Below, piece after piece: positions 1-6,100 of a DNA stretch of 7,193 nt. The stretch comes from a virus (Duplodnaviria > Heunggongvirae > Uroviricota > Caudoviricetes): positions 1-7,193 of the IMG/VR virus record IMGVR_UViG_2579778894_000025; one strand, 5' to 3'. Within the stretch, counting starts at the first letter, position 1; each line of letters opens with the position of its first letter. A program made the translations under genes and the position numbers. The notes under the pieces are model-generated. The model was given only the letters and a program-made list of their open reading frames with translations. It was not told where the DNA came from and did no database searches.

Positions 1-798
1 GTTAATGATTTCATGGATAGCGTCCACCATATTTGGTGTCCACTATTCTCTCAGGAATTTCAGGATCTGCCAGACGGTGCTGAGACGACGCTTACATCTG
101 AACGGGAAACAACAAAGAACCAGATCCGTGTCGCCTTGCCTGGCATTGTTCAGTCATTCGCTCCTGATGCGGTGACGGCGGTTGTACAGCCTGCTATCCG
201 TTACGTTGAAATTGATAACGACGGCAACCGCATTACCAAAAATTACCCATTGCTGGTGGATGTGCCAGTGGTATTCCCGCGTGGCGGAGGCTGTACGCTA
301 ACGTTTCCAGTTAAAGCCGGTGATGAATGTTTGGTGATTTTTGCCGATCGTTGTATTGATTTCTGGTGGCAGAGTGGCGGGATACAGGAGCCGGTCGATG
401 ACAGAATGCATGATTTATCGGATGCGTTTTGTATTGTCGGTCCCCAGTCGCAGGCAAGGAAGATTAGCGGTATTAATACCAGTGCCACACAGTTGCGTAG
501 TGATGACGGCAGCACCTATTTTGAGCTTAATCCTGATACCAGGAAAATTAAAATTGTCGCTCCGGGGGGCCTTGATGTGGTTGCCCCTCTGGCTGATTTT
601 TCTGAGAAAGTAACCATTCATGGCCTGTTAACCTGGATGGGAGGCATGGTGGGGTCTGTTGTTTCTGGTGTGGCTTCAAAAATCACTGGTGCTGTTGAGT
701 TTTTGGGTAGCGTGAAGGCTAACGGCAAGCCAATCGATGATACGCACACTCATGGTGGTGTTCAGCGCGGTGGAAGCAATACCGACGGAGTAAACTGA
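1..798 (+). CDS. Baseplate central spike protein (phage gpV / Mu gp45-like), possibly 5'-partial
   Basis: ORF track 13..798 (261 aa). The frame is open back to position 1 and no Shine-Dalgarno precedes ATG13, so the true start may lie upstream of the window. Central region (…LLVDVPVVFPRGGGCTLTFPVKAGDECLVIFADRCIDFWWQSGG…) resembles the OB-fold domain of gpV-type spikes; Gly-rich C-terminus ends …DDTHTHGGVQRGGSNTDGVN, resembling the His-containing apex of P2 gpV. Stop overlaps next start (TGATG, 796-800). Confidence 0.75.
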   Translation, partial: VNDFMDSVHHIWCPLFSQEFQDLPDGAETTLTSERETTKNQIRVALPGIVQSFAPDAVTAVVQPAIRYVEIDNDGNRITKNYPLLVDVPVVFPRGGGCTLTFPVKAGDECLVIFADRCIDFWWQSGGIQEPVDDRMHDLSDAFCIVGPQSQARKISGINTSATQLRSDDGSTYFELNPDTRKIKIVAPGGLDVVAPLADFSEKVTIHGLLTWMGGMVGSVVSGVASKITGAVEFLGSVKANGKPIDDTHTHGGVQRGGSNTDGVN

Positions 799-1151
799 TG
801 CGATACAGACGTGAAGACGCCGATGGCGATTATACCTTTGGCAGCGGTGATGACACTTGGCTGATTAACTCACCGGAGGCCGTGGCGCAGGCGGTAAAAA
901 CTCGATTCGAATTGTGGTATGGGCAATGGTTTCTCGACACCACCGAGGGGACTCCGTGGATCCAGTCCGTACTCGGTAAGCAGAAGCCGGAAACTTACAA
1001 CCTGGCGATCCGTAAGCGCATTCTGGAAACGCAGGGCGTTAAATCAATCCTCTCTTTCAATACGACGGTGGATACCACGACCCGACGTGTCATGTTTTCC
1101 GCTGAAATCGACACTCTCTATGGAATAACGACTGTTACATCGGAGGCGTAA
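798..1151 (+). CDS. Small baseplate protein (Mu gp46-position; gpW-like role inferred from synteny)
   Basis: ORF track 798..1151 (117 aa). GGAG at 787-790 upstream of ATG798. Start overlaps the upstream stop, and its own stop TAA (1148-1150) abuts ATG1151. Function assigned from position between gpV-like and gpJ-like genes, as in Mu/P2 baseplate modules; the sequence itself is not diagnostic to me. Confidence 0.6.
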   Translation: MRYRREDADGDYTFGSGDDTWLINSPEAVAQAVKTRFELWYGQWFLDTTEGTPWIQSVLGKQKPETYNLAIRKRILETQGVKSILSFNTTVDTTTRRVMFSAEIDTLYGITTVTSEA

Positions 1152-2350
1152 TGGCTCTGAACCTTGATTCTCTCGGTTTATCTGCAAAGGTAACCGCGGA
1201 GGGGATCAGTGCGCCTGATTATCAGACGATACTCAGCACCCTGATTAGCTATTTTCAGCAGATTTATGGCAGTGATGCCTACCTCGAACCGGACAGCAAA
1301 GACGGCCAGATGGTGGCTCTGATGGCGCTGGCGATTCATGATGCCAATAATATGGCGATAACTGTCTACAACTGTTTTTCACCGGCAACCGGCTATGGGG
1401 CTGCACTGACCAGTAACGTGAAAATAAATGGTATTTCACGTAAAGGCGCGACGAATTCTACGGTTGATTTGCTTCTTACAGGAACTGCCGGAACAACCAT
1501 CATTAATGGCAGCGTGAAAGACAGTAATAATGTGATATGGCGTTTGCCTGCTTCAGTGGTGGTCGGCGTGGATGGTACAGTGATGGTGACCGCAAAATGT
1601 TCCGTCAGTGGTGCAGTGGCGGCGCTGGCTGGAACTATCACTGAAATTAATACGCCAACCCGTGGCTGGGTTTCGGTAACCAATCCTGCTGCAGCTACTG
1701 TAGGCACTCCAGCAGAAACTGACGCGGAGTTACGTATCCGCCAGTCGCAAAGTGTTGCGTTGCCATCAATAACCCCATTTGAAGCACTGGATGGCGCTGT
1801 TTCTAATGTTACCGGTGTAACCCGCCACAAACTCTATGAAAACGATACTGGTTCGGAGGACGGCAACGGGTTACCGCCACACTCTGTTGCTGTAATTGTG
1901 GATGGCGGTGATGTAACGGATATTGCTCAGGCTATCAGAGGAAATAAAGGCCAGGGGACAGCCACTCACGGTACAACATCCGTTACGGTTCCGGATAAAT
2001 ACGGCAATCCCCATGTAATCAAATTCTCGCGTTCCAGTGATGTGCCTGTTTATGCCCGGATTAAATTAAAAGTTTTTACGGGTTATACCTCACAGATAGG
2101 GCAGCAGATCCAGCAGGCTATTTCCGACTATATCAATAGTCTGATGATTGGTGATTCGGTCCTTTTAAGTCGCATTTACTCACCGGCGAATCTTGGCGTG
2201 GTGAGTGGCGGGAATGCACGCTATTACGATATTCAGGAACTGACGATTGGGAAATCCCCGGGGGCTTTGTCGTCATCAAACATTGATATCAGATACAACG
2301 AATCTGCGTCCTGTACCCCGGAAAATATCGTTATAACGGTGGAGTCATGA
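1151..2350 (+). CDS. Baseplate J-like protein (P2 gpJ / Mu gp47 family)
   Basis: ORF track 1151..2350 (399 aa). GGAGG at 1142-1146, 4 nt before the ATG. Size and N-terminal character (MALNLDSLGLSAKVTAEGISAPDYQTILSTLISYF…) fit baseplate J family; position after gpV/gp46-like genes. Stop TGA (2348-2350) overlaps next start ATG2347 (ATGA). Confidence 0.75.
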   Translation: MALNLDSLGLSAKVTAEGISAPDYQTILSTLISYFQQIYGSDAYLEPDSKDGQMVALMALAIHDANNMAITVYNCFSPATGYGAALTSNVKINGISRKGATNSTVDLLLTGTAGTTIINGSVKDSNNVIWRLPASVVVGVDGTVMVTAKCSVSGAVAALAGTITEINTPTRGWVSVTNPAAATVGTPAETDAELRIRQSQSVALPSITPFEALDGAVSNVTGVTRHKLYENDTGSEDGNGLPPHSVAVIVDGGDVTDIAQAIRGNKGQGTATHGTTSVTVPDKYGNPHVIKFSRSSDVPVYARIKLKVFTGYTSQIGQQIQQAISDYINSLMIGDSVLLSRIYSPANLGVVSGGNARYYDIQELTIGKSPGALSSSNIDIRYNESASCTPENIVITVES

Positions 2351-3027
2351 GCAAATACACCGAACTAATCACAAACTACCACGCCACCAAACCTAAATTT
2401 CTTGCACATGTTGATCTGATGACCCGGCCACTTATTGATGTTGCGGCTGCCACCAGAGGGCTGATTACTGCATTTGATATTGACTCTGCGGTTGGTGTGC
2501 AACTTGACATTCTGGGATTGTGGATCGGACGTAGCCGTGTTGTCAGCCAGCCTATCTCAGGTGTCTATTTCAGCTGGGATACCGACGGGCTTGGATATGA
2601 TCAGGGGGTATGGCAGGGACCATACGATCCTGATTCAGGATACATGTACCTCAGCGATGAAACTTATCGTGTCATCCTTAAAGCGAAGATTGCGATTAAT
2701 AACTGGGACGGACGGAATGATTCGCTTCCGGCAATTCTTGACGCGGCAACAGCAGGATCCGGACTGCGAATGCAGATAGTCGATAACCATGACATGACGA
2801 TATCGGTCTGGGTCTTTCCTGATACTGATATTTCAGATGTATCGCGTGAGTTAATTGCGGCAATTAAACAGGGGTATCTCACAGTAAAAGCCGCCGGGGT
2901 ATGGGCGGGTGGCATTGAAACACCTTCGGTGGAAACCCCATCGGAAGGCTCAAAATTTTTTGGTTTTGATATGGATAACGAATTCATCAGTGGTTTTGAT
3001 GTAGGAGCATGGGGAGTATTACTCTGA
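2347..3027 (+). CDS. Tail/baseplate protein, gpI-like (Mu gp48 / e14 YmfQ-type, DUF2313-like)
   Basis: ORF track 2347..3027 (226 aa). ATGA overlap with upstream gene; stop TGA 3025-3027 overlaps the tail fiber start ATG3027 (TGATG). Assignment mainly by synteny, immediately upstream of the tail fiber gene as in Mu and e14. Confidence 0.65.
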   Translation: MSKYTELITNYHATKPKFLAHVDLMTRPLIDVAAATRGLITAFDIDSAVGVQLDILGLWIGRSRVVSQPISGVYFSWDTDGLGYDQGVWQGPYDPDSGYMYLSDETYRVILKAKIAINNWDGRNDSLPAILDAATAGSGLRMQIVDNHDMTISVWVFPDTDISDVSRELIAAIKQGYLTVKAAGVWAGGIETPSVETPSEGSKFFGFDMDNEFISGFDVGAWGVLL

Positions 3028-3659
3028 TGACGAAAAATGACTTTAAAGCGTTTGCAACGGATCGAAATGCCAATGTTATATCGCAGGAGGAATGGGAAGC
3101 GTTGCCCGCGCTTTTATCCGGATTTACAGCAGGGAAAGCATCCAGTGCGCAAGTCAATAAGGTTATTCGGCAGGCCAGCTTTATTGCTGCAGCTCTGGCC
3201 CAGTTTGTAAGTGATAAAACGCAACGGGATGTGCTTGATAATGGTGATCTGCCCGGTTTTGTTGAATTGCTGGGATCGGGGTTTGCTGTTGAATACCTGA
3301 GCCGCAAGAATCCGTTTGGTGATATCAAATCGGATGGCACGGTGAAAACGGCTCTCGAAAACCTTGGTTTTGGAGAAGGTGCTAACTGGGTTATGTTACC
3401 TGGAGGAATGATAATTCAGCGTGTTTATCTTGGATTTCCTGTCGGCACCAATGTAAGACACATAACTTTCCCCCGGTCGTTTACAACAACGAACTATTCA
3501 ATCTCAATTAACTGGAATGATATCGGTACTGCAACAACTGAAACACAATCTCCAGCAAATGTGGCGGTTGTTCATCAAACAAAATCATTAACAGGGGCCA
3601 GCATCTGGCAGGCAGGTCCCGGGGGATTTAATGTGGACATTATAGCGGTGGGGTATTGA
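3027..3659 (+). CDS. Tail fiber protein: constant N-terminal part (about 3027-3363) fused to variable C-terminal part inside the invertible segment (about 3366-3659)
   Basis: In-frame ATG3027 (MTKNDFKAFATDRNANVISQEEWEALP…) is preferred over the track's ATG3009 because it overlaps the upstream stop (TGATG) and has GGAG 10 nt upstream. 210 aa. A hix/gix-like crossover site lies at codons 109-117 (…TALENLGFGEG…). Confidence 0.8.
   Translation: MTKNDFKAFATDRNANVISQEEWEALPALLSGFTAGKASSAQVNKVIRQASFIAAALAQFVSDKTQRDVLDNGDLPGFVELLGSGFAVEYLSRKNPFGDIKSDGTVKTALENLGFGEGANWVMLPGGMIIQRVYLGFPVGTNVRHITFPRSFTTTNYSISINWNDIGTATTETQSPANVAVVHQTKSLTGASIWQAGPGGFNVDIIAVGY
3352..3377 (+). other. Site-specific inversion crossover site (hix/gix/pix-like), left
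   Basis: CTCTCGAAAACC-TT-GGTTTTGGAGAA: two 12-bp half-sites in inverted repeat (10/12 symmetric) around a 2-bp TT core, matching the remembered Hin/Gin/Cin/Pin site pattern TTnTCnAAAACC-NN-GGTTTnnGAnAA. Located inside the tail fiber ORF. Confidence 0.65.
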
Positions 3660-3786
3660 TATGTACGTATAGAGCACTAAAGCAAATGGCTTTTTCCCCA
3701 TATCGGAGAAAGAAAAATTTGAGGCATCAGGTCTGTGGCCTGATGATGGTGTAATAGTCAGTGAGGAAGAACATAAAAAGTTATTT

Positions 3787-4089
3787 ATGGATATTCCACC
3801 AGGAAAACAGATTGGAACACTGAATGGAAAACCAGCACTGATAGATATTCCTCAGCCGACCAAAAAGGAATTAATAGCTATTGCTGAAGTTAAAAAATCC
3901 CAATTACGGGAAAAAGCTGACAGTGAAATATCCTGGCGTCAGGATGCTGTTGATGCTGATATCGTAACTGATGAAGAAGCTACAAGTCTCACCCAATGGA
4001 AGAAATACCGTGTGCTGCTGATGCGTGTTGATACGTCAACAGCACCCGATATTGAATGGCCTACGCCTCCGGCAGTTCAGGCCAGATGA
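3787..4089 (+). CDS. Tail fiber assembly protein (Tfa family), apparently N-terminally truncated by an in-frame amber codon
   Basis: ORF track 3787..4089 (100 aa); C-terminus …EEATSLTQWKKYRVLLMRVDTSTAPDIEWPTPP is the conserved Tfa C-terminal motif. The same frame is open upstream to 3673 and encodes Tfa-like N-terminal sequence (STKANGFFPISEKEKFEASGLWPDDGVIVSEEE…), preceded by ATG3661-TAC-GTA-TAG(3670-3672). Confidence 0.7.
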   Translation: MDIPPGKQIGTLNGKPALIDIPQPTKKELIAIAEVKKSQLREKADSEISWRQDAVDADIVTDEEATSLTQWKKYRVLLMRVDTSTAPDIEWPTPPAVQAR

Positions 4090-4663
4090 CATCCGGCGCG
4101 GTGCTGGTATCTGTTGCCATCACCGCGTCAGTGTAATCCAGCACGGCGTTAAGGCGGGTGGTTTCTGCCTGCGTCAGCCTCCGCCCGGCCTGCAATTTCA
4201 GCTGAATCAGACTGATGGAAGCCATTGCTGCATCAATCAGTGACTGGCGCTGTGCTTCTGCCGCTTCGACTGCGGCGCTATGTTGTGCCTCAGCATCGGC
4301 CACCCATTTCTCACCATCCCATTTATCGTATGGCGTTAACGGTGCGAGAGTGGTTGTATTTTCGGGATAGTCGCCTGGTGCTGTGATTTCTTTGGCATCT
4401 CCCGTTTCGGTGTTATAGACAATTTCACCGCGATGGTCTGGTACATATTCCCATGAGTTAAAATCTGCTGAGCGGCAGATAGCATAACCAGCCTTATGTG
4501 TGCCAGGGGCATCCAAACAAGAAAATGCTGGGATACCGACGCCAACAGCAAGATATTCAGTTGATGTAGAAATATATTCTCGTGTTTCACCATCATAATT
4601 ATAAACGGTAATATCTCCCGCCTTTGTGGCGATGAGTTCCTTATTTAATATAGCTTTATCCAT
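4061..4663 (-). CDS. Tail fiber assembly protein (Tfa family, full length), partner of the alternative fiber C-terminus
   Basis: ORF track 4061..4663 (200 aa); C-terminus …RLNAVLDYTDAVMATDTSTAPDVIWPELPEA is the conserved Tfa motif. Start overlaps the stop of the upstream - strand fiber segment (TGATG). GAGGG lies about 10 nt upstream on the - strand. Confidence 0.85.
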   Translation of the reverse strand: MDKAILNKELIATKAGDITVYNYDGETREYISTSTEYLAVGVGIPAFSCLDAPGTHKAGYAICRSADFNSWEYVPDHRGEIVYNTETGDAKEITAPGDYPENTTTLAPLTPYDKWDGEKWVADAEAQHSAAVEAAEAQRQSLIDAAMASISLIQLKLQAGRRLTQAETTRLNAVLDYTDAVMATDTSTAPDVIWPELPEA

Positions 4664-5172
4664 CAGGCAGCCCTCACGATATAATTAAAGGCAATGTTAC
4701 GGGGTCGATTTTCGTTTGCAGTTGGAACAATTCTTGAAGCATCAAGGCCAATCACTTTTGGGTAAACAGCGCCATCTGTTCTTTCTGTCACCATACTTCT
4801 GGTTAAGGAGAAATAACTATTGTTCGTTGAGGGGTTCAAAGGCACTACTGCCCCCTTAAACGAGCCTACTGATTCCCATATTGAATAATTTTCGGTGTTT
4901 ACAGTCTTGAACTCACCATAGATATTACGTATGGCATCGCCCTGAGCGGATAATATTGTTCTCCCCGCATCCGCACTACGCCCATCATCCCAGCCACGAA
5001 TAAATTCACCGCGTAAATCAGGCAATTTATTTGTCGGGTAAGCCTTTGCCAGTTCCGGGTATTCTTCAGCAGAAAAAGCCGCACCATTGCATTTCAGCCA
5101 GCCTGTCGGCGGAGTGGCGTAAGGCCACGGAACAGGCACACCGACAGGTAATGCAGAGCCTTCTCCCAAACC
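4663..5172 (-). CDS. Alternative tail fiber C-terminal variable segment with collar-type end; promoterless gene segment expressed only after inversion
   Basis: - strand frame open from the crossover site; from the site inward it reads GLGEGSALPVGVPVPWPYATPPTGWLKCNGAAFSAEEYPELAKAYPTNKLPDLRGEFIRGWDDGRSADAGR…NIAFNYIVRAA, typical of phage tail-fiber collar C-termini (lambda Stf / P2 H-like ending). The track's Met at 5214 has no RBS and lies beyond the crossover site, so it is not taken as a real start. Confidence 0.75.
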   Translation of the reverse strand, partial: GLGEGSALPVGVPVPWPYATPPTGWLKCNGAAFSAEEYPELAKAYPTNKLPDLRGEFIRGWDDGRSADAGRTILSAQGDAIRNIYGEFKTVNTENYSIWESVGSFKGAVVPLNPSTNNSYFSLTRSMVTERTDGAVYPKVIGLDASRIVPTANENRPRNIAFNYIVRAA

Positions 5173-5186
5173 AACGTTTAAGAAAA
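5161..5186 (-). other. Site-specific inversion crossover site (hix/gix/pix-like), right, inverted relative to the left site
   Basis: Read on the - strand: TTTTCTTAAACG-TT-GGTTTGGGAGAA; 20/26 identical to the left site (hand alignment), with the same TT core and the same downstream GG-GAG-AAG-G coding GEG. Lies 56 bp upstream of the pin start. Confidence 0.6.
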
Positions 5187-5241
5187 TGCAGAGGTAACAG
5201 CTAACTGGCATCATCTCCGGTTTTTATTCAGGGGGATGATC

Positions 5242-5796
5242 ATGCTTATTGGCTATGTACGTGTGTCAACAAATGACCAGAACACAGACCTACAACGTAA
5301 TGCGCTGAACTGTGCAGGATGTGAGCTGATTTTTGAAGACAAGATAAGCGGTACAAAGTCCGAAAGGCCTGGACTGAAAAAACTGCTCAGGACATTATCG
5401 GCAGGTGACACGCTGGTGGTCTGGAAACTGGACCGGCTGGGGCGCAGTATGCGGCATCTTGTCGTGCTGGTGGAGGAGTTGCGCGAACGAGGCATCAACT
5501 TTCGTAGTCTGACTGATTCAATTGATACCAGCACACCAATGGGACGCTTTTTCTTCCATGTGATGGGTGCCCTGGCTGAAATGGAACGTGAACTGATTGT
5601 TGAACGAACAAAAGCAGGACTGGAAGCTGCTCGCGCACAGGGACGAATTGGTGGACGACGTCCCAAACTTACACCAGAACAATGGGCACAGGCCGGACGA
5701 TTAATTGCATCAGGAGTTCCTCGCCAGAAGGTGGCGATCATCTATGATGTTGGCATATCGACTTTGTATAAGAGGTTTCCGGTCGGAGATAAATGA
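5242..5796 (+). CDS. pin: Serine DNA invertase, Hin/Gin/Cin/Pin family
   Basis: ORF track 5236..5796; start refined to ATG5242 (MLIGYVRVSTNDQ…, 184 aa) with GGGGGA 6 nt upstream. Small serine recombinase hallmarks: catalytic Ser9 in VRVSTNDQ, conserved DRLGRS and GRFFFHVMGALAEMERELIVERT segments, C-terminal helix-turn-helix (QKVAIIYDVGISTLYKRF). Strong resemblance to Hin/Gin from memory. Confidence 0.9.
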   Translation: MLIGYVRVSTNDQNTDLQRNALNCAGCELIFEDKISGTKSERPGLKKLLRTLSAGDTLVVWKLDRLGRSMRHLVVLVEELRERGINFRSLTDSIDTSTPMGRFFFHVMGALAEMERELIVERTKAGLEAARAQGRIGGRRPKLTPEQWAQAGRLIASGVPRQKVAIIYDVGISTLYKRFPVGDK

Positions 5797-6100
5797 AACC
5801 GTAGCACGTCGTATGCAAGAACGTGCCACGGCTGGCTGATGGACGTTCGATAGCGCGAGTTTGAATGAAAATCAGCCGGAGATGATTTTACATAATTGCT
5901 ACGGAATTATTCAATAAAGGAATTGCTTGTGTCTGCATGGATTGACCTGAAATATTCCCGAAAATTTCTCTAAAAAACTCGAAAAAAATGGTAACTAATT
6001 GAATGTATTAATATGCAATGGTACGTGTTAGGGATTAAAAGATGAACGTAAATTTATTCAACGCATTAATTTTAAAGGGTTTTATTGTTTGTTGACGAAA

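Follow-up and report, generated by a model that had tools for sequence, protein, structure and literature searches.

The window, that is, the whole 7,193-bp stretch of DNA that was analyzed, holds a tail-fiber gene divided at a crossover site, two alternative C-terminal fiber cassettes lying on opposite strands between two such sites, and a serine DNA invertase gene just beyond them. Every component of the switch listed in an earlier sequence-only reading is present, in its expected place or within a few bases of it.

The fiber gene begins on the + strand with a constant N-terminal part of approximately 112 codons (3027–3363), which continues in the sequenced orientation into a variable C-terminus (3364–3659, + strand) with a gp53-like C-terminal domain. 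An in-frame ATG is also found upstream at 3009, but RefSeq homologs begin at the equivalent of 3027, and this start was chosen by comparison with the related loci L002 and L013 (MINF_2E). The encoded fiber has 210 aa, 208 of which are identical in the MINF_2E fiber. The match of its N-terminus to a tail-fiber PHROG spans residues 1 to ∼118–124, ending at the crossover, and homology to sister prophages likewise continues through the constant part and ends at 3378/3379. The expressed tip matches Pfam Gp53-like_C with an E-value of 4e-05 and 24.4 bits, slightly below the gathering score of 24.9; the RefSeq relatives carry the name “gp53-like domain-containing protein.”

The alternative C-terminus is encoded on the − strand (4663–5174) and carries a phage tail collar domain (Pfam Collar, E-value 9e-16); the open reading frame as a whole, including a leader outside the segment, covers 4663–5214. 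When the segment is inverted in silico, the constant part (3027–3363) joins the collar tip in frame, with the predicted junction ...GAAAACCTTGGTTTGGGAGAAGGCTCTGC..., and encodes a fusion of 282 aa from the start at 3027 or 288 aa from that at 3009. The predicted 282-aa fusion is identical at 273 of 282 positions (97%) to the annotated protein WP_001096984.1 of Escherichia coli 97-3250 (L014). The proposed arrangement of a constant fiber N-terminus outside the segment and two alternative C-termini is borne out by this in-frame fusion, which has a real homolog.

The segment itself comprises 1811 bp (3364–5174) between two inverted, imperfect palindromes of 26 bp with identical central TT/AA. The left, pixL-like site (3352–3377) reads CTCTCGAAAACC TT GGTTTTGGAGAA, with the core TT at 3364–3365; the right, pixR-like site (5161–5186) reads TTCTCCCAAACC AA CGTTTAAGAAAA on the + strand, with the core AA at 5173–5174, and TTTTCTTAAACG TT GGTTTGGGAGAA as its reverse complement. 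The crossovers anticipated at 3364 and 5174 coincide with these central dinucleotides. Dyad symmetry extends over 10/12 positions in the left site and 8/12 in the right; each site is identical at 25/26 positions to its counterpart in the e14 P segment, and the left site at 18/26 to Mu gix. For the inverted 1797-bp P segment of e14, a flanking inverted repeat, TTGGTTTGGGAGAAGG, has been reported (PMC12529663); this repeat occurs at 3364–3379 (+ strand, one mismatch) and 5159–5174 (− strand, no mismatches) and nowhere else in the window (chance expectation 0.00 in 200 shuffles). The family core AAACCNNGGTTT, with one mismatch allowed, also matches only at the two sites (chance mean 0.25). It should be noted that a third, degenerate pattern was built from the sites themselves and is circular, whereas the core and e14-repeat patterns are independent of them. 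None of the three patterns revealed any further crossover site in the 7,193-bp window, which has exactly two.

The invertase gene (5242–5796, + strand; 184 aa) begins 55 bp beyond the right site and outside the segment; the in-frame ATG slightly upstream, at 5236, is unlikely to be its start. The protein contains a Resolvase domain (E-value 1.6e-51, residues 5–137) and an HTH_7 domain (6e-12), matches phrog_125 “DNA invertase” (7e-97), and is 97.3% identical to K-12 PinE and 78.5% identical to Mu Gin. It matches the Gin structures 3uj3 (E-value 7e-94) and 4m6f (2e-92), with which the motifs MLIGYVRVS(9)TNDQ and KLDRLGRS are identical; of the Hin structures, only that of the DNA-binding domain, 1hcr, was matched (1e-06). 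A serine invertase of the Gin/Hin/Pin style had been placed here by the sequence-only reading, which named a catalytically dead enzyme, for example one that had lost Ser9, as one part of a case against the switch; Ser9 is intact in the sequence, and Met114 is wild type. NCBIfam offered no specific model for the PinE, fiber, or Tfa proteins, with all matches below cut-off.

In its 5′ portion, the invertase gene carries two 15-mers resembling the Fis consensus (5324–5338 and 5372–5386). Their centers, at nt 90 and 138 of pin, are separated by 48 bp, and each fits 9/11 positions of the degenerate consensus. Both sites recur in e14 pinE, and Mu gin has matching ones at nt 89 and 136. As 1.7% of positions fit this loose consensus as background and the conservation of the two sites is confounded by coding constraint, we regard 5324–5386 as a candidate recombinational enhancer with putative Fis sites.

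Both C-termini are followed by a tail-fiber assembly (tfa) gene. The collar-type C-terminus is followed by an intact TfaE-type gene of 200 aa (4061–4663, − strand; Caudo_TAP E-value 1e-31, phrog_105 1e-97), whose ATG overlaps the stop codon of the fiber tip and whose product is 90% identical to K-12 TfaE over 200 aa. The tfa gene of the expressed C-terminus (3661–4089, + strand) is disrupted by an in-frame TAG at codon 4 (3670–3672); its Caudo_TAP match (E-value 1.8e-32, profile positions 4–130) lies downstream of this stop, and the next in-frame start, ATG 3787, would leave only 100 aa. The expectation that each C-terminus has its own tfa thus holds for the architecture, with two Caudo_TAP genes, but the copy belonging to the expressed orientation carries an amber codon. 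Codon 4 is TGG in L003, L004, L005, and L013, where an intact protein of 142 aa is encoded, and the change from TGG to TAG, a G>A substitution at 3671, occurs in none of the 111 complete E. coli genomes holding this cassette. Identity over the whole of 3641–3701 is found in no complete E. coli genome, and an exact-match scan of species-representative genomes with the amber-containing 39-mer gave no match. Because codon 4 is TAG here and TGG in every relative checked, the + strand tfa is probably a pseudogene. With the amber codon in the expressed-orientation tfa, only the inverted state encodes a complete fiber-plus-chaperone pair.

Outside the segment, a short in-frame leader (MMPVSCYLCIFLNV...; 5175–5214, − strand) reads over the right site and on into the C-terminus that is silent at the time. 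Its counterpart in e14 is the 5′ end of stfE, and the ATG-ATG of the leader at 5214/5211, in frame with the silent C-terminus, is kept in 14 Pin-type loci. The silent C-terminus and its tfa had been thought to have no start of their own; this does not hold, since the − strand tfa has its own ATG and the ATG-ATG at 5214/5211 precedes the silent C-terminus. After inversion, the reading frame from the 5214 leader is predicted to encode a 111-aa chimera with the gp53-like domain. No RNA family turned up when the complete window was scanned with Rfam, and hence no sRNA of the SdsR/RyeA type in the gap between pin and pphA.

The closest characterized counterpart of the region is the e14 P segment (stfP-tfaP-tfaE-stfE-pinE), with the same gene order and orientation. 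The likeness extends from the invertase, TfaE, and crossover sites to the in-frame leader upstream of the right site and to the 3′-terminal ∼64 nt of the constant part (93–96%); most of the constant part is unrelated. The segment measures 1811 bp from core to core here and 1829 bp in e14. The expressed gp53-like tip and its tfa represent a different cassette from e14 StfP/TfaP, with a tfa identity of only 33%; the collar tip shares 56% identity with that of e14 stfE, and the amber codon in the + strand tfa is found here, unlike in e14. The host elements also differ: e14 lies at icd and has YmfQ, whereas the present module belongs to a myovirus-type prophage beside pphA, with a baseplate module of DUF2612 and a Gp138-like spike.

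The G segment of Mu with Gin follows the same logic: the N-terminus of S is constant, each of its two C-termini has a U-type chaperone behind it, and the invertase lies just outside the right site; Gin is 78% identical, the sites share an AAACC-NN-GGTTT core, and the candidate Fis sites are at the same gene positions. Mu differs in its ∼3-kb segment, its much longer fibers (504 aa), its largely unrelated fiber and Tfa sequences, and its core dinucleotide, which is TC in contrast to TT here, with 17–18/26 positions of the sites identical. P2-like E. coli prophages (L003 and L004, and loci in EPEC; PMC4272514) encode the identical pair of gp53-like tip with tfa and TfaE with collar tip at 94–97% DNA identity. 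Their constant part, however, is different and longer (fibers of 373–516 aa), and their invertase gene, only ∼81–83% identical in DNA, is flanked by the segment and the sheath gene. The Hin/H segment of Salmonella shares the invertase family and the 26-bp sites and has a Fis enhancer within its invertase gene, where the present locus has a candidate one, but Hin lies inside its own segment and switches a flagellin promoter, with no exchange of C-terminal coding cassettes.

Both orientations of the module are found among related genomes. The inverted window aligns contiguously with E. coli 97-3250 over 96–4458 (96.2%) and is also contiguous with L007, while the present orientation aligns contiguously with MINF_2E over 96–4706 (96.3%); both states therefore exist in sister prophages, across genomes rather than within one culture. 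Among the left junctions in complete E. coli genomes, 60 show the predicted recombinant and 3 the present form. PK8241, also at the pphA locus, has the constant part fused to the collar cassette, and the P2-like prophages have the same cassette pair in both orientations. The draft contig analyzed here (JICG01000033.1 of assembly GCA_000690985.1, traced by exact protein look-up) passes straight through the segment in one orientation. Among the relatives are a full-length prophage of ∼43 kb and phage genomes deposited under vB_EcoM names; no paper came up in a literature search on vB_EcoM-606R2 and 611R5, the closest of these phages.

We read the region as the tail-fiber switching module of a myovirus-type prophage beside pphA in an E. 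coli-like chromosome, orthologous to the e14 P segment with PinE, and give this reading a probability of about 0.88. It is carried by the anatomy of the locus, the in-frame fusion, the near-identity to a characterized system, and the presence of both states in related genomes. Points against it are the broken tfa of the current orientation and the single orientation shown by the draft contig. The recombinase is of the ∼180–195-aa type, has Ser9 and the associated motifs, is highly identical to a characterized member, and is accompanied by paired 26-bp sites, all as in the Din family. The assignment by the sequence-only reading to a known class, the Gin/Hin/Pin-type switches that exchange fiber C-termini, is upheld by the invertase, the 25/26 sites, the in-frame fusion, and the two orientations in sister prophages. 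It is a known system and a near-copy of the e14 P segment, the twist being the premature stop in the helper gene of the expressed tip.

In the proposed mechanism, PinE dimers would bind the two inverted 26-bp sites, with Fis presumably bound to the enhancer inside the 5′ part of pin; cleavage at the central TT/AA, strand rotation, and religation would then leave 3364–5174 (1811 bp) inverted. In the sequenced orientation the late operon would run from the constant part through the gp53-like tip to tfa, and in the inverted orientation from the constant part through the collar-domain tip (282 aa) to the TfaE-type chaperone. In culture, the segment of e14 is flipped by PinE (PMC4272514, PMC12529663), and the present one would be expected to flip in this strain as well, probably in dependence on Fis, and a mixed population of orientations may be expected by the same analogy. 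The two tips have unrelated domains (gp53-like and Collar) and, after the examples of Mu G and P1 C, should recognize different receptors, so that inversion would affect host range. The amber codon in tfa may likewise have a phenotype.

A rival that we consider possible, if unlikely, is that the switch is a relic, inherited from a functional phage and now decaying, in which flipping may persist but, with a defective prophage or fiber assembly, would have no effect on host range. The nonsense codon in the tfa of the expressed orientation is private to this sequence, decay is frequent in related loci (truncated recombinase or fiber pseudogenes in L001, L005, L007, and L014), and e14, with the same module, is a cryptic prophage; moreover, the contig starts within the spike gene, with the rest of the prophage lying beyond it. 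Against this, all other genes of the window, namely spike, wedge, baseplate J, DUF2612, fiber, TfaE-type tfa, collar cassette, and pin, are full length, at ∼98.9% identity to L001 and L002 and 96–98% to other relatives. The invertase and both sites are also intact, and in the inverted state a complete fiber-plus-chaperone pair would remain encoded.

The amber codon and the leader also raise the question of whether the module is a symmetric A/B toggle at all. Inversion could instead turn assembly-competent fibers OFF and ON, and/or the 111-aa gp53-like fragment from ATG 5214 could serve as an adsorption-blocking host defense; we hold this departure from a symmetric toggle to be improbable. Slightly less probable again is a purely host-directed role, in which the chimera acts for the host, for example by blocking phage adsorption, and not for the host range of the prophage. 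The idea draws on the predicted chimera, on the ATG-ATG leader kept in the 14 Pin-type loci, and on the analogous e14 chimera StfE2, which is reported to be made by inversion in K-12 and to lower T2 adsorption (PMC12529663). But the gp53-like cassette has no detectable similarity to the C-terminus of K-12 StfP, the part that forms StfE2, and the activity of StfE2 is thus not transferable by homology. The leader, furthermore, sits in the 55-bp gap that must also house the pin promoter and 5′UTR, which could account for its conservation. Its GGAG directly abuts ATG 5214, a poor spacing, and no signal peptide-like feature is present; a consensus scan for sigma-70 promoters and terminators, uninformative as to a promoter for the silent cassette or for pin, gave fewer promoter-like hits than in shuffled controls and none in the gap at 5186–5242.

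A multiple-inversion system of the Min/p15B type, or a three-site shufflon type as in P2-like prophages, with more than two sites and more than two fiber variants, is very improbable and was rejected, as only two sites in the whole window match any of the three patterns and only two C-terminal cassettes are present, even though such variants exist in EPEC P2-like prophages (PMC4272514) and L001 has three tfa fragments or genes. A shufflon proper, with an Rci tyrosine recombinase and more than two 19-bp repeats, was likewise discarded, the recombinase here being of the serine resolvase family and the sites two in number.

Read as a PinE-type switch, the locus leaves the current understanding of the system unchanged, but annotation should treat its fiber genes as a single invertible unit that yields either of two products, and assemblies of such strains would show only one of two states that exist side by side. 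One chaperone gene carries an amber codon, a strain-specific detail that could render one orientation non-infective. The cassettes are found on three unrelated tail backbones, those of the P2-like prophages, of e14, and of the present family, and the crossover sites are precisely where homology between loci stops; the module is a clean example of recombination sites doubling as boundaries for the horizontal exchange of receptor-binding modules.

Two crossover sites bound the invertible segment (3364-5174), and on re-checking both lay where the sequence-only reading had placed them: the left one at 3352-3377 (CTCTCGAAAACC TT GGTTTTGGAGAA, central TT at 3364-3365) and the right one at 5161-5186 (reverse complement TTTTCTTAAACG TT GGTTTGGGAGAA, centre at 5173-5174). 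They are, as had been proposed, inverted with respect to each other; both are imperfect palindromes with an identical central dinucleotide, and a general repeat finder missed both, as their arms are short and not perfectly matched. The 16-bp repeat TTGGTTTGGGAGAAGG is reported to flank the inverted P segment of e14 (PMC12529663); in the window it is found at 3364-3379 and 5159-5174 and nowhere else (chance expectation 0.00), and matches to the family core AAACCNNGGTTT are limited to the same two places. The corresponding e14 sites share 25 of 26 positions with each window site, whereas identity to the gix sites of Mu is 17-18 of 26. Pattern searches of the window found no third crossover site; this is therefore a simple switch with two states, and a multi-site inversion system is excluded.

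The recombinase gene pin (5242-5796, + strand) encodes a protein of 184 aa that matches the sequences of the Mu Gin crystal structures over residues 1-181 (E 7e-94), with 97.3% identity to K-12 PinE and 78.5% to Gin. Alignment to the Gin structure sequences shows that the proposed serine invertase keeps Ser9 as well as the KLDRLGRS motif and the wild-type Met114. Two 15-mers resembling the Fis consensus are found within pin at 5324-5338 and 5372-5386, exactly 48 bp apart (pin nt 90 and 138); both are identical in e14 pinE, and Mu gin carries similar sites at equivalent positions (nt 89 and 136). The Hin and Gin enhancers reportedly have this position and spacing (Johnson and colleagues, 1987, a study cited in PMC3798978). 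The pair is regarded as a candidate recombinational enhancer only, as it lies in coding sequence and the consensus is a loose one.

Reverse complementing 3364-5174 in silico brings the collar-type cassette in frame with the constant part of the fibre (3027-3363, + strand), the junction reading ...TALENLG followed by LGEGSALPVGVPVPW..., and yields a fused fibre of 282 aa from the 3027 start with the intact 200-aa TfaE-type gene directly after it. This inverted state is not hypothetical, because the inverted window aligns contiguously with a sister prophage of E. coli 97-3250 (96-4458, 96.2%), whose annotated fibre (WP_001096984.1) is identical to the predicted fusion at 273 of 282 residues. The window as sequenced is contiguous with strain MINF_2E (96-4706, 96.3%). 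Among complete E. coli genomes, 60 carry the predicted recombinant junction as contiguous sequence and 3 the present one. At the pphA locus the collar cassette is attached to the constant part in PK8241 and silent in PEC209 and DEC5A. The cassette pair of the window is found either way round in P2-like prophages (L003, L004) and in an e14 at icd (L005). A constant N-terminus with two alternative C-termini, as first read from the sequence, is thus borne out by the computed fusion and by both states in relatives. What has been shown comprises the anatomy, a reading frame that fits across the junction, an invertase and sites almost identical to PinE and its targets, and the natural occurrence of both states. 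The Pin-type switch had been correctly recognized, and rightly assigned to a known class: the system is a textbook one, and RefSeq relatives already bear the annotation pinE.

By analogy with e14, Mu and P1, a culture of the source strain would be expected to contain a mixture of orientations, inversion would require Fis, and the gp53-like and collar tips would give different host ranges. Mixed orientations of e14 were found by WGS and PCR (PMC4272514), with ~30% inverted by qPCR (PMC12529663); a change of host range by the G segment of Mu and the C segment of P1 is cited in the introduction of PMC12529663.

The sole strain-specific point worth note is a nonsense codon in one chaperone gene. 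Each C-terminus had been assigned its own tfa, and both genes are in place; the one behind the expressed gp53-like tip (3661-4089, +), however, starts ATG TAC GTA TAG, with TAG as codon 4 (3670-3672). In all relatives examined (L003, L004, L005 and L013) this codon is TGG and the gene codes for an intact protein of 142 aa; of 111 complete E. coli genomes with the cassette, none was identical over 3641-3701 and none carried the TAG change. Given that the TAG is private, that the next in-frame start (ATG 3787) gives 100 aa, and that the Pfam match starts directly past the stop codon, this tfa is most likely a fresh pseudogene, barring a base-call error or amber suppression in the strain. A second private difference lies close by (GCG>GCA... 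at 3677). It is plausible that the switch is a decaying relic, as the amber codon, the frequent decay of relatives and the location of the remaining prophage beyond the window would all fit; this would alter the consequence of the switch and leave its identity unaltered. A host-defence role, as for StfE2, is improbable: the gp53-like tip is unrelated to K-12 StfP, and such a role is therefore without support by homology.

The statement that the silent cassette has no start of its own needs correction. The TfaE-type tfa (4061-4663, -) has an ATG, overlapping the stop codon before it, and an in-frame ATG-ATG at 5214/5211 precedes the collar-domain C-terminus (4663-5214, -). This leader (5175-5214, - strand) lies outside the segment and reads across the right crossover site; its pattern MMP..Y..IF.NVG is kept in 14 Pin-type loci, with a counterpart in Mu (MP...), and the first part of e14 stfE is its equivalent. 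In the simulated inverted state the leader forms a predicted 111-aa chimera with the gp53-like domain, analogous to e14 StfE2. The pin promoter and 5'UTR must share the same 55 bp, and this alone may account for the conservation of the leader.

Homology between related loci (L001-L008, L013, L014) breaks at 3378/3379 and 5159/5160, at the crossover sites themselves, and the gp53-like/tfa and TfaE/collar pair is found with 94-97% DNA identity on tail backbones of three unrelated kinds (those of P2-like prophages, of e14 at icd and of the window's prophage family at pphA or yfhH), which suggests that cassettes are exchanged at or near these sites. The final ~64 nt of the constant part (3300-3363, encoding ...KNPFGDIKSDGTVKTALENLG) share 93-96% identity with e14 stfP, whereas the remainder is unrelated; this stretch looks like a conserved adaptor directly upstream of the crossover site. 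The convergent tfa genes share 29 bp at their 3' ends (4061-4089), and both products, encoded on opposite strands, end in a conserved DTSTAPD(I/V)(E/I)WP motif. A 21-nt inverted repeat surrounds pin (5210-5230 and 5866-5886, 81% complementary), and e14 homology extends up to the pin stop codon (5797) and no further; pin may be a separately exchanged module, or this may be chance.

The window matches nt 2-7194 of draft contig JICG01000033.1 (assembly GCA_000690985.1) base for base, and comprises a prophage right end (bases 1 to ~6095) followed from 6096 by core chromosome (pphA, yebW). The sequence from 6096 onward, upstream of pphA, was matched in 5426/5426 complete E. coli genomes and the pin-to-pphA junction as in the window in 228 of these; the boundary at ~6095/6096 by pphA is therefore an integration site used repeatedly. 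The source contig begins within the spike gene (window 1 being contig position 2), so that the assembly break falls in the prophage tail module; similar prophages repeated in that genome may be the cause. In order, the prophage genes encode a Gp138-like spike (46-798), a sheath-initiator or wedge protein (798-1151), baseplate J (1151-2350), a DUF2612 wedge protein (2347-3027) and the tail fibre (3027-3659), and are followed by the two tfa genes, the collar-domain C-terminus and pin. In the related E. coli PEC209 the same module closes a ~43-kb prophage with integrase, lysis, terminase, head, sheath and tube genes; among deposited phage genomes, vB_EcoM-606R2 and 611R5 are the closest.
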